Part shown: positions 23,854 through 25,512 of the stretch, one piece after another
Layout of the letters: each line of letters opens with the position of its first letter
Numbering within the stretch: the stretch's first letter is position 1
Source: an uncultured Bacteroidales bacterium
GTDB taxonomy: Bacteria > Bacteroidota > Bacteroidia > Bacteroidales > Bacteroidaceae
NCBI GenBank assembly: GCA_902776985.1
Contig: CACYSD010000001.1
Span: 106,758 to 170,757 of the forward strand
Direction: 5' to 3'
DNA: 64,000 nucleotides
Position numbers and translations under genes: made by a program
Notes under the pieces: generated by a model
Databases searched by the model: none
Told to the model about the DNA's origin: nothing
Seen by the model: the letters and a program-made list of their open reading frames with translations, nothing else

Positions 23854-25512
23854 TTAGAACTCACTAGTGAAGTGGAACTTGATATTTTTGAAGTCCTGCT
23901 GAGCCATCATGAGCACATAGCTGGAGTCGGCAAGGAACACATCGCGTCCTTCACGGTCACGAGCCATATACTGATACTTGCGCTTCTTGAAGTTTTCGTA
24001 CTCTGCTTCATCGTCGCTTTCAATCCAGCACGCTTTGTAAAGGCTGGCAGGTTCCCATTTACAGAGCGCATTATACTCATTTTCAAGACGATACTGGATA
24101 ACTTCAAACTGCAACTGACCTACGGTTCCGATGAGTTTGCGACCGTTAAACTGATTGATGAACAGCTGCGCAACACCCTCGTCCATAAGCTGGTTAATAC
24201 CTTTTTCCAGCTGCTTGGTCTTCATCGGGTCGGCATTTTCGATATATTTGAACATTTCAGGAGAGAACGATGGCAATCCCTTGAAATGCAGTTGTTCACC
24301 TTCAGTCAGAGTGTCACCGATTTTGAAGATTCCGTTATCCGGCAAACCTACGATGTCTCCAGGATATGCTTCCTCAATGGTACTCTTGCGCTGTGCCATG
24401 AATTGAGTTGGAGAAGAGAAACGCACAGTTTTGCCCTGACGTACATGGAGATAAGGAGCGTTGCGGACGAACTTTCCTGAGCAGACCTTGCAAAAGGCAG
24501 TACATGAACGGTGGTTAGGGTCGATGTTCGCGGTTATCTTGAAGATGAATCCTGTGAATTTCGGTTCATCGGGCTGTACCAAGCGCTCTTCCGCTGTAGT
24601 AGGACGTGGACGCGGTGCAATCTCCACGAAACAGTCGAGCAGTTCCTGCACACCGAAGTTATTAAGTGCAGAACCGAAGAATACTGGGGCAACAGAAGCA
24701 TCGAGATAATCCTCAACATTGAATTCCGGATATACACCTTCAATAAGTTCAAGGTCATCACGCAGTTTCTGAGCATCTTCAGCTCCGACATGAGCGTCGA
24801 GTTCGCTGCTATTGACATCCACCTCCACTTTCTCTGTCACTTTCTGCTTGTCAGGAGTAAAGAGGTTGAGGTTATTCTCATAAATATTATATACGCCTTT
24901 GAAACGAGCACCCTGATTAATAGGCCAAGAGAGCGGACGGACACTGATTTGTAGTTCTTCTTCCACCTCATCGAGCAAATCAAACGGGTCGCGACCTTCA
25001 CGGTCCATCTTGTTGATAAACACTATGACTGGAGTCTTACGCATACGGCACACAGTCATGAGTTTACGTGTCTGTGCCTCCACGCCCTTTGCTCCGTCAA
25101 TCACGATGATTGCGCTGTCAACAGCTGTGAGGGTACGGAAAGTGTCTTCTGCAAAGTCCTGGTGACCTGGAGTATCGAGGATATTAACTTTATAAGGCTG
25201 CTGTCCAGGATCTGCCATAGGAGGCAGGTAGTCAAACTCCATCACAGATGTGCTGACAGAGATACCACGCTGCTTCTCTATCTCCATCCAGTCGGATGTA
25301 GCAGTCTTCTTGATTTTATTCGATTTCACAGCTCCTGCCACTTGGATCTGTCCTCCAAAGAGCAGCAGTTTCTCAGTAAGTGTTGTCTTACCCGCATCCG
25401 GGTGACTGATAATCGCAAACGTGCGACGGCGGTCTATTTCAGACCCACCCCTTCCCCTCCCTGCAAGGGAGGGAGTGGATAGATTATCATTAACTGTATT
25501 TTGTTGATTCAT
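23854..25512 (-). CDS. prfC: Peptide chain release factor 3 (GTPase), with an N-terminal extension encoded by a GC-rich hairpin repeat
   Basis: [27 protein letters not shown]1 motif and the rest of the RF3 architecture. 552 aa. The N-terminal 22 aa (..[13 protein letters not shown]) are the translation of repeat element 25445-25479. Confidence 0.9.
25445..25479 (-). repeat. GC-rich G4-motif hairpin element, copy 1 (G-rich on minus strand)
   Basis: Reverse complement is CCACTCCCTCCCTTGCAGGGAGGGGAAGGGGTGGG. Same family as the copies at 25553, 32731, 43196, 43712 and 45063. Confidence 0.55.

Follow-up and report, generated by a model that had tools for sequence, protein, structure and literature searches.

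Mycobacterial interspersed repetitive units (MIRUs) lie at operon junctions and carry small open reading frames (ORFs) that overlap the stop and start codons of the flanking genes. Rickettsia palindromic elements (RPEs), which Ogata et al. are said to have described in 2000, reportedly insert in frame within protein genes and add 20-45 residues at permissive sites. RPE-decorated N-termini have been reported to be expressed, and repetitive extragenic palindromes (REPs), including doublets as well as gene-internal copies and copies at ORF N-termini, have been described for Proteobacteria and others; REP palindromes carry a conserved GTAG or CGTC tetranucleotide at their 5' end (PMC3733652). Free-standing Vsr-like homing endonuclease genes, I-Bth0305I among them, break genes and show overlapping frames and nearby hairpins, and in one intein-less case, at SbcD, residues are added to both host halves (Dassa et al. 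2009, PMC2677866). The locus described here shares features with each of these systems. It lies in a 64,000-nucleotide stretch of DNA from an uncultured Bacteroidales bacterium (GenBank assembly GCA_902776985.1, contig CACYSD010000001.1, positions 106,758 to 170,757), called the window below, in which the junction between rmlD (dTDP-4-dehydrorhamnose reductase) and prfC, the gene for release factor 3 (RF3), is filled by a pair of G/C-rich hairpin repeats.

An earlier, sequence-only reading of the window had singled out one hairpin, capable of forming a G-quadruplex (G4), as an in-frame insertion at the 5' coding end of prfC. The hairpin is probably the right terminal repeat of a gene-less doublet that belongs to a family of elements linked to the nuclease family DUF559, and this doublet probably supplies the start of RF3.

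A repeat doublet at the rmlD-prfC junction

The features of the junction, in window coordinates, are as follows (TIR, terminal inverted repeat).

23854..25512, minus strand: prfC (RF3), 552 aa, from the ORF call and Pfam; start ATG at 25510-25512; residues 1-24 encoded by the repeat doublet
25441..25480, minus strand: right TIR, copy c1, AUCCACUCCCUCCCUUGCAGGGAGGGGAAGGGGUGGGUCU, with the G strand as the mRNA strand; encodes (L) plus 13 residues of RF3
25481..25552, minus strand: doublet interior, 72 nt, A/T-rich; holds a 40-nt spacer past the rmlD stop, the prfC ATG and the first 10-11 leader codons
25553..25593, minus strand: left TIR, copy c2, mRNA-strand AGACCCUCCCCCUUACCCCUCCCGUAAAGGGCGGGGAGUAG; encodes the final 13 residues of RmlD, KTLPLTPPVKGGE, and the TAG stop (25553-25555)
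25553..26434, minus strand: rmlD, Pfam RmlD_sub_bind 5e-100; C-terminal tail repeat-encoded

Copies c1 and c2 form an inverted doublet of 153 bp (25441-25593) with outer ends AGACCC/GGGTCT, and this doublet occupies the entire junction. The left arm supplies the last 13 residues of RmlD and its stop codon, and the interior and right arm supply the only canonical start of RF3 together with a leader of 22-24 residues. The 72-nt interior falls within the main size class of doublet interiors in the family (64-97 nt). In repeat-free relatives, the C-terminus of RmlD reads ECLNQMMI*, ECISRI* or ECIETLMKNC*. The view that the hairpin was inserted into prfC stands insofar as the extra codons are absent from more than 120 relatives, but the hairpin is not a lone insertion; it is one arm of a junction-filling doublet that has also rewritten the RmlD C-terminus. 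In one of the repeat-free relatives (L001; loci from other genomes and contigs carry L numbers), a native GAGACCCTC at the 3' end of rmlD is similar to the outer end of an arm, and could be a target or a scar.

The identity of prfC is clear from its Pfam domains (GTP_EFTU, 3.9e-51; EF-G_D2, 1.9e-22; RF3_C, 2.1e-43), from the presence of the G1 motif, and from 84-92% identity to proteins named RF3 by their sources. Codons 1-24 read ATG AAT CAA CAA AAT ACA GTT AAT GAT AAT CTA TCC ACT CCC TCC CTT GCA GGG AGG GGA AGG GGT GGG TCT, and are followed by GAA ATA GAC CGC CGT CGC ACG TTT (EIDRRRTF). The ATG at 25512 is the sole in-frame ATG, GTG or TTG upstream of the G1 motif; near-cognate codons occur as ATA (codon 26) and ATT/ATC (codons 34-35). 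The sequence-only reading had described this arrangement correctly, with the only start 22 codons upstream and no canonical in-frame start between the repeat and RRTF, and the minus-strand sequence confirms that the G-rich strand is the mRNA strand, as it had stated. It had also regarded the intervening codons as a translation of the hairpin. All 22 extra codons between the ATG and EIDRRRTF are repeat-derived, but only 13 of them belong to the G-rich hairpin (25441-25480), and the others come from the doublet interior.

The N-terminal length of RF3 was compared with that of its relatives, as had been proposed. All 120 of the best RF3 relatives (84-92% identity) are short, with an N-terminus of the form M-x(1-3)-EI(E/D)RRRTF and no extension, and relative to short starts such as MNQEI(E/D)RRRTF the window protein has an excess of 21-22 codons. 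An identical 552-aa RF3 is found on 12 metagenome contigs (~99% identity), the insertion is unaltered in eight loci of 98.7-100% identity, and the synteny LysE-DUF4924-RmlD-prfC is conserved. A repeat-encoded N-terminal extension of RF3 is well supported by these alignments, most likely as a Gly/Arg-rich tail of 22 residues with a start codon that depends on the repeat. The gene prfC is dispensable in E. coli K-12, and its description as essential is therefore unproven here.

A second variable place exists within the RF3 clade, where a hypervariable insert of 0 to ~42 residues follows MEFDY. In L211 this insert is a complete in-frame doublet of 126 nt, AGACCC...GGGTCT (L211:1722-1848). In the window, the 11-residue stretch at the same variable loop (25205-25240, codons ~92-103) has no recognisable arm and may be a decayed remnant.

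Orthologous junctions in relatives

Repeat-free junctions show a short native start of prfC. In L216 (96% core identity) the stop of rmlD and the ATG of prfC overlap (ATGA), and in L214 and L001 the two genes are separated by ordinary spacers of 131 and 103 nt, respectively. An ancestral long N-terminus, which would have spoken against a repeat-derived extension, was not found in these three relatives. Two further extended RF3s were recovered in the 90% protein cluster, P0132 (97.6% identity; DNA L212) and P0133 (88.9%; L213). Both have the junction as in the window, directly before GAA ATA GA, with a homologous leader AATACAsTyAAAGAw and an arm sequence type that differs from that of the window. 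The codons preceding GAA number 24 in the window, 25 in L212 and 22 in L213, all stop-free and in frame, and the leader of L213 starts with TTG only. In L212, L213 and L211 the left arm is likewise fused to the 3' end of rmlD, with other arm types. Since the sequences and lengths of the repeats differ and yet the frame is open in the window, L212 and L213, translation from the upstream start is favoured.

The sequence-only reading had left the choice between an extension and a non-canonical start of translation, and this frame conservation argues for the former. If the repeat were instead a 5' untranslated region, RF3 would start past the hairpin at ATA (codon 26), one codon beyond the arm, or at ATT/ATC (codons 34-35), and for Proteobacterial REPs at ORF 5' ends downstream initiation is indeed often the better reading (PMC3733652). 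At prfC such a start is most improbable. ATA, ATT and ATC are very weak starts, and initiation at ATT/ATC would remove part of the G1-adjacent strand. Furthermore, in three diverged lineages indels have left the upstream frame open and its length divisible by three, L213 has its upstream TTG and nothing downstream, and the design of ATG, leader and arm recurs throughout the family, with an ATG that overlaps the nuclease stop (see below).

A doublet is also present at the rmlD-prfC junction of L209 and L211, where the native prfC ATG is retained 8 nt past GGGTCT (GGGTCT TCAATAAT ATG in L209 and GGGTCT GTTATTAA ATG in L211). The junction is occupied in five of the nine species examined (the window, L212, L213, L209 and L211). 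The window junction, GGGTCT followed directly by GAA ATA GAC, matches the product of a putative 14-17-nt deletion from a precursor like L209 or L211. In a tree of the RF3 core the fused state is patchy, and the nearest neighbour of P0133 (97%) lacks it. As judged from these sequences, the prfC extension is older than the species.

Two other observations concern this region in the relatives. In the species closest to that of L213, the rmlD-prfC spacer (L215:694-1068) contains a PF13366 (PDDEXK_3) nuclease gene of 124 aa amid ACGGAT/ATCCGT repeats, so that small nuclease genes of different kinds are drawn to this junction. In L211, a DUF559 element lies directly upstream of rmlD (L211:150-270), and the native rmlD ATG is retained 6 nt past GGGTCT; the gene caller started this RmlD from an ATG within the arm (303 aa), an annotation error due to the repeat.

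RNA structure and the question of regulation

As RNA, c1 folds into a predicted 15-bp hairpin of -24.0 kcal/mol. Its G arm, GGGAGGGGAAGGGGTGGG, has the four tracts of a canonical G4 motif and scores 2.78 in G4Hunter (copies c1-c4, 2.65-2.78). In the G4 model of ViennaRNA the G arm alone reaches -19.4 kcal/mol, but when the C arm is included the hairpin (-24.0 kcal/mol for c1) is the minimum-energy fold in four of four copies. The G4-capable structure that had been placed in the first 70 nt of the mRNA is real as a motif, but the hairpin is predicted to outcompete it. The orthologous L212 and L213 have no canonical motif of four G3 tracts, only three tracts of at least three, and their hairpins are weaker than that of the window (-11.7 and -17 kcal/mol, respectively). 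The G4 as favoured fold was rejected on the modelled energies and on this lack of conservation. What is conserved at the two orthologous loci is the open frame, and neither the G4 motif nor the strength of the hairpin.

The prfC start region (-20 to +20) is predicted to be largely open (its positions are unpaired with a mean probability of 0.76); the hairpin lies at +33 to +70. In a second predicted interaction the left arm pairs with the right arm in the RNA (-64.6 kcal/mol, z = -5.3), and the ATG is left in a ~70-nt loop. An intrinsic terminator between rmlD and prfC was considered and set aside, as no U tract follows the left arm on the mRNA strand. The Bacteroidetes -7 motif TAnnTTTG, sought as a sign of a promoter in the doublet, was not found on the minus strand of 25513-27200. 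A scan of the window at Rfam gathering thresholds gave no match to known RNA families, and an E-value scan of 25350-25700 gave only sub-threshold matches to miRNA precursors, which reflect the long inverted repeat.

Could the hairpin or a G4 be a dedicated cis-regulator that throttles or conditions RF3 synthesis? The sequence-only reading had considered throttling by a G4-capable structure plausible. In favour are the G4 motif (G4Hunter 2.78) and the hairpin of -24 kcal/mol, both in the first 70 nt of the ORF, and the arm pairing of -64.6 kcal/mol that loops out the start codon. This role is very unlikely, and throttling by a G4 in particular finds no support here. The hairpin outcompetes the G4 in the model, and it begins at +33, leaving the start region open. 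L212 and L213 have no run of four G3 tracts and their hairpin strength has drifted (-11.7 and -17 kcal/mol), yet the ORF is kept. An identical unit is found at dozens of unrelated genes as well as inside ORFs, and most RF3 relatives have no hairpin. No evidence for a dedicated throttle on RF3 was found in these comparisons; the repeat at prfC is a curiosity and no sign of regulation, and its effect on RF3 output is probably small.

A different functional proposal is domestication of the doublet, which would now serve as a portable cassette for translation, with a start codon in an A/U-rich loop closed by a GC stem. Such a cassette would suit Bacteroidota, which rarely rely on Shine-Dalgarno pairing. 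The predicted fold does place the ATG in a ~70-nt open loop, and the spacing from ATG to arm is at least 26 nt in all 22 cases in which a repeat copy lies in frame behind an ATG. One might further speculate that the cassette couples prfC initiation to rmlD, with ribosomes that finish rmlD melting the left arm; the rmlD stop is at the inner end of that arm, and the repeat-free L216 couples the two genes by an ATGA overlap. The proposal is drawn from folding, the arms have decayed in L212, and many relatives do without the doublet, and for these reasons we consider domestication quite unlikely.

DUF559 nuclease-bearing elements

A second pair of arms, ~18 kb from the prfC doublet, encloses a nuclease gene.

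43234..43274, minus strand: left TIR, copy c3; inverted repeat I3, 43 nt, 84% complementary to 43712-43754
43308..43688, plus strand: DUF559 (PF04480, Vsr-fold PD-(D/E)XK) nuclease gene, ~126 aa; Pfam 1.5e-32, PDB 3HRL 5.7e-17
43712..43752, plus strand: right TIR, copy c4, in frame within the first 24 codons of the following ORF
43681..45063, plus strand: major facilitator superfamily (MFS) transporter gene; element-encoded N-terminus MNKQTNSNNQSTPRPHREGQGGGS

The DUF559 gene is the sole gene of this element (43234-43752), and c3 and c4 are inverted in the same tail-out manner as c2 and c1. The ATG of the MFS gene (43681) overlaps the DUF559 stop (ATGAATAA) and is followed by 10 A-rich codons and the right arm, an arrangement repeated in the orthologous loci L129-L136. 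No function has, to our knowledge, been assigned to DUF559, a large family.

A search with the window protein returned DUF559 homologues at 80 metagenome loci (43-98% identity), most of them flanked by inverted C-run/G-run hairpin arms. Among 73 DUF559 loci, the inverted-repeat score between the two flanks had a median of 47, compared with 18 for controls in which the flanks were displaced by 400 nt, and a score of at least 40 was reached at 42 of these 73 loci versus 1 of 55 controls. All six DUF559 genes at genome loci are arm-flanked. The columns of the nuclease core F.RQ..Y..DF...E.DGG.H...RF.N are at least 95% conserved across 60 homologues. The arm sequence varies with the nuclease lineage, with stem complementarity kept (CCCCTCCC/GGGAGGGG, CCTCCCC/GGGGAGG, CTCCCCC/GGGGGAG, CCCTCTCC/GGAGAGGG and others), and on one contig two DUF559 lineages that are 50% identical (L149 and L153) have different arm types. 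From the aligned sequences, the architecture of the family is AGACCC..hairpin..GAGTAG, then a DUF559 gene or a short spacer, then CTACTC..hairpin..GGGTCT. Only weak nuclease-domain matches were obtained for the nuclease in PADLOC and PHROGs. In the open-access literature we found no repeat family flanking DUF559 and no element that systematically supplies the stop and start codons of its neighbours, with description elsewhere being possible; open-access work on Prevotella MITEs (miniature inverted-repeat transposable elements) and REPs, on Bacteroidetes RAYT transposases and REP doublets (REPINs), and the RepRanger survey held nothing relevant. The element family is apparently widespread in rumen and gut Prevotellaceae, selfish and undescribed.

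Repeat copies and their mirror layout

The window contains the motif CCCTCCC-N(2-12)-GGGAGGG two times where 0.00 are expected, and GGGAGGGG five times where 0.8 are expected. There are four full arms (25441-25480, 25553-25593, 43234-43274 and 43712-43752) and one short one (45064-45091). In the genome collection, at least 117 stretches contain the 23-nt G arm; those listed, 80 in all, come from metagenome-assembled genomes (MAGs) of Prevotellaceae, Bacteroidaceae or Bacteroidales and one MAG of 'Candidatus Minthosoma caballi'.

The G block that follows the stem mirrors the G arm of the stem rather than repeating it directly (183 mirror versus 22 direct), with A or T opposite the A of the stem: GGGAGGGG is followed by GGGGGwGGG, GGGGAGG by GGAGGGGG, and GAGAGGGG by GGGGGTGAG. 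This mirroring covaries across lineages and is seen, e.g., at window positions 25441-25461, 25571-25593, 43234-43256 and 43730-43752 and in L129-L208. A mirror layout is what an intramolecular purine-motif triplex requires, and the arms may form one; alternatively, the tail may pair with yTACTCC through G.U or G.T pairs.

Elements between and inside genes

At 39 of 47 loci with clear arms, a co-directional upstream ORF of at least 80 codons terminates at the left arm; 18 of these stops are within 3 nt of the outer end of the arm (e.g. TAA directly before AGACCC) and 13 are inside the arm. The downstream ORF almost always has its start ATG near the nuclease stop, at -23 to +28 nt counted from the stop's end and with peaks at -8 (ATGnnTAA) and -4 (ATGA). 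It continues through ~10 polar codons and the right arm and enters the host protein no more than a few residues from the conserved core. Such element-led proteins include ArgC (VGILGAAGYTGGELIRLL), an oxoacid oxidoreductase (DYKKGQPRWCPGCGDHFF), CysS, ArgG, IlvB, FolD, RpiB, a sirtuin and a HAD hydrolase. The prfC leader, with MN, polar residues and STP..G.G.GGS, shares its design with the leaders of these elements. From the ORF layout, nuclease elements typically abut the upstream stop, and their outward ATG, overlapping the stop of the nuclease, opens a frame that crosses the right arm and enters the next gene.

An inverted partner was found on the correct side for 81 of 150 arms, and on the wrong side for 6 of 134. 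The interiors of doublets cluster at 34-36 nt, 64-97 nt and 412-446 nt, the last with DUF559, and gene-less doublets, as scored by arm pairing, are the common form of the family. Of the copies, 157 could be classified: 22 follow an ATG in frame, at a distance of 26-117 nt (median 39), 30 are embedded in ORFs with at least 100 open codons to either side, and 16 have an upstream ORF that runs into them. Counted against GGGTCT, the downstream ORF is unevenly distributed over the three frames (52:21:21; chi-square ~20, df 2). In-frame internal copies were checked in GltB (glutamate synthase), an AcrB-type pump, GH2 and GH43, where Pfam domains flank or span the insert. A bias toward CAA over TAA linkers in ORF-embedded copies (30:8 vs 36:49, Fisher p = 2e-4) was set aside as partly circular, since no copy with an in-frame TAA can count as embedded; the frame bias was relied on instead.

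Mobility and origin of the prfC copy

Within a leucine-biosynthesis gene cluster, L120 holds two element copies that are ~90% identical over ~505 bp (L120:1380-1960 and 3900-4470), with the identity bounded exactly by AGACCC and GGGTC(T/C) and the flanks unrelated. Full elements thus appear, on sequence grounds, as discrete units duplicated to new sites. DUF559 pairs of 70-76% identity lie at different host genes (folD, rpiB, aroK, cysS, argC and others), and at the argC start site the occupying DUF559 genes are only 44-48% identical to one another. Movement of the elements is read from these comparisons as real but not demonstrably recent, with some junctions colonised repeatedly. At the second L120 copy, joining ATGAGG on the left side to ACTATCGAAATCATGGAC on the right side would give M-R-T-I-E-I-M-D-T-T-L-R-D-G-E-Q, which suggests an insertion just past codon 2 that left the native ATG stranded upstream of the left arm.

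The history of the prfC copy would begin with a state like that of L209 and L211, in which an arm precedes the native ATG by a few nucleotides. The loss of a short segment would then have fused the arm to prfC codon 3-4, and the ATG of the element would have taken over. In the present state, translation of RF3 would start at the 25512 ATG, which lies in unpaired, A/U-rich sequence, and ribosomes would read through the hairpin to produce a Gly/Arg-rich tail, probably disordered, before the G1 motif. The copy itself would be old and immobile. The doublet would persist because its removal would delete both the prfC start and the rmlD stop, a situation that might be called start-codon capture. The family as a whole may have spread through the action of the DUF559 nuclease on cognate arms, by homing-like repair or by transposition; the one indirect hint at cleavage of an empty allele and spread by repair is that the fused prfC cassette is scattered over the RF3 tree.

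Several points weigh against this explanation. The argument for translation through the hairpin is frame conservation alone. The prfC leader shows no significant similarity to the leader of the resident nuclease element (right side, p = 0.24), nor does the left side of the doublet interior to that element (p = 0.71), and derivation of the doublet from a DUF559 element by deletion rests on architecture and not on interior homology. Native RF3 also starts with MNQ or MNE, and the ATG at 25512 could be native, with 63-66 nt inserted past codon 2-3. No presence/absence polymorphism of the insertion was found among the eight near-identical loci (98.7-100%), and no target-site duplication was seen at either L120 copy. 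DUF559 pairs that are at least 90% identical are always at one host gene. In addition, the hairpin sample was drawn with a single exact 23-nt pattern and is biased to intact arms, the comparison sequences are metagenome contigs or MAGs throughout, and the ORF contexts are stop-to-stop ORFs rather than curated gene calls.

Some of these points would suit another event, the insertion of a lone hairpin with its spacer (63-66 nt) after codon 2-3 of a native prfC, in which case the ATG at 25512 would be native, the left arm an independent arrival, and the link to DUF559 a matter of arm family only. The native RF3 of the clade begins MNQ, MNE or MNP and that of the window MNQ, the prfC leader is not significantly similar to that of the DUF559 element, and ~46% of arms have no detected partner. 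Against this, the homologous leader of L213 begins TTG GAA AAC and not ATG AAT; both arms are present, tail-out, at the junction in five species (the window, L212, L213, L209 and L211); the interior of 72 nt belongs to the main doublet class; MN followed by polar residues is typical of element leaders; and the arm upstream of an intact native ATG in L209 and L211 provides a plausible precursor. A lone insertion is accordingly judged unlikely, and the terminal repeat of a gene-less doublet remains the preferred identity of the hairpin.

A broader and more tentative suggestion, to which we give somewhat less than an even chance, is that the DUF559 elements with their terminal inverted repeats constitute an unrecognised class of mobile DNA, with a Vsr-fold nuclease as sole gene, that is made harmless at the level of translation rather than splicing. 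The left arm would end the upstream ORF, and the internal ATG, coupled to the nuclease stop, would restart the downstream ORF; gene-less doublets inside genes would serve as in-frame linker peptides; and once the host start had decayed the element could not be lost, as at prfC. The pyrimidine arm, purine arm and mirror purine tail would fit a purine-motif triplex or G.T hairpin, which could be recognised by a relative of a mismatch nuclease. If this is correct, DUF559 would gain a concrete role, in that it would provide the nuclease to a repeat family which rumen and gut Prevotellaceae harbour in abundance, and selfish DNA would be seen to enter operon junctions and gene interiors (gltB, acrB, prfC) without introns or inteins, bringing its own stop, start and tolerable linker. 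In Prevotellaceae proteins, many of the long N-termini and C-terminal tails, and of the internal inserts of low complexity, would then be repeat-encoded, and start-codon calls near these repeats would be unreliable.

Other repeats in the window

Two further features belong to the same repeat family.

45064..45091, plus strand: short hairpin resembling a left TIR, copy c5, AGACCCTCCCGTCAGGGAGGGAGTAAG, directly past the MFS stop; RNA -15.5 kcal/mol, z = -3.25
43197..43233, minus strand: additional incomplete outer termini (GGGTCT blocks), stacked beyond the outer end of c3

The outer ends of arms often continue into further GGGTCT blocks, themselves incomplete, or into whole arms in tandem, as in the window (43197-43233) and in L211, L076, L056, L027, L094 and L101, and four tandem left arms of 61 nt each are found at L211:1128-1330. 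The stacked outer ends look like the result of repeated end-processing or slippage.

Repeats of other kinds are also present. Three arrays of 10-bp tandem repeats on CCTAGG (CCTAGGAAAG and similar), of 11-19 copies each, lie at 40623-40806, 41540-41746 and 45100-45228, and two of the three bracket the group of sugar-isomerase-like, DUF559 and MFS genes; their helical-period spacing suggests a phased protein-binding array. A second, unrelated family of hairpin repeats (AAAGTTTCAGCGAAGTGAAAC-type, 22-nt period) is found at 11857-11953 and 38916-39037, and palindromic repeats AACGTTATA / ATGACGTAATAACG occur at two intergenic sites (27024-27057 and 48565-48632). At 9892-10048 there is a coding-looking tandem repeat, GCTACTGAAGAAGCT, with periods of 9, 12, 33 and 42 nt and an Ala/Thr/Glu-rich, low-complexity product.

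Comparison with known systems

The family resembles the REP/REPIN-RAYT systems in its short GC-rich palindromes of high copy number, mostly in inverted doublets, in the single protein gene between two inverted units with apparently cognate repeat types (L149/L153), and in the location of units between co-directional genes, with some in ORFs or at N-termini (PMC3116915, PMC3733652). The flanked gene is different, being a DUF559 Vsr-fold nuclease (nearest structure 3HRL, an 'endonuclease-like protein') with no match to a Y1 HUH transposase. The arms bear an extra G block that mirrors the stem, and the conserved GAGTAG is at the inner foot, 3' of the palindrome on that strand, opposite in placement to the GTAG tag of REPs. 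Furthermore, full elements supply the stop and start codons of their neighbours, and a large share of the copies would, by their frames, be translated.

As with RPEs, palindromes are present in frame within conserved ORFs that they do not disrupt, as seen in GltB, AcrB, GH2, GH43 and the prfC of L211. Unlike RPEs, the repeats have no Rfam match, their hosts are Bacteroidales and the sequence family is unrelated; they have an associated nuclease gene, where none is known for RPEs, and they replace operon junctions too.

The Vsr-like homing endonuclease genes offer a parallel in the small Vsr-fold nuclease gene wedged in or between conserved genes, in the same orientation and with overlapping frames and adjacent hairpins, and in the recurrent sites (the argC start and the prfC junction). 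DUF559 is only distantly related to the I-Bth0305I family, with no PDB match to I-Bth0305I and a weak match to the PADLOC 'homing endonuclease' model (E = 0.0014). The long terminal inverted repeats and abundant gene-less derivatives also set the present elements apart, and neither inteins nor introns are involved.

Finally, the gene-less doublets are like MITEs, Correia elements (NEMIS) and MIRUs in being non-autonomous units with terminal inverted repeats that are co-transcribed with their neighbours (PMC10969869). They differ from MITEs in that the parent gene encodes a PD-(D/E)XK nuclease rather than a DDE transposase and no target-site duplication is seen at the L120 copies, and from all three in that the arms are structured G/C blocks. 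We read the family as REP/RPE-like selfish DNA, linked to a nuclease for which no association with repeats of this type has been reported before.

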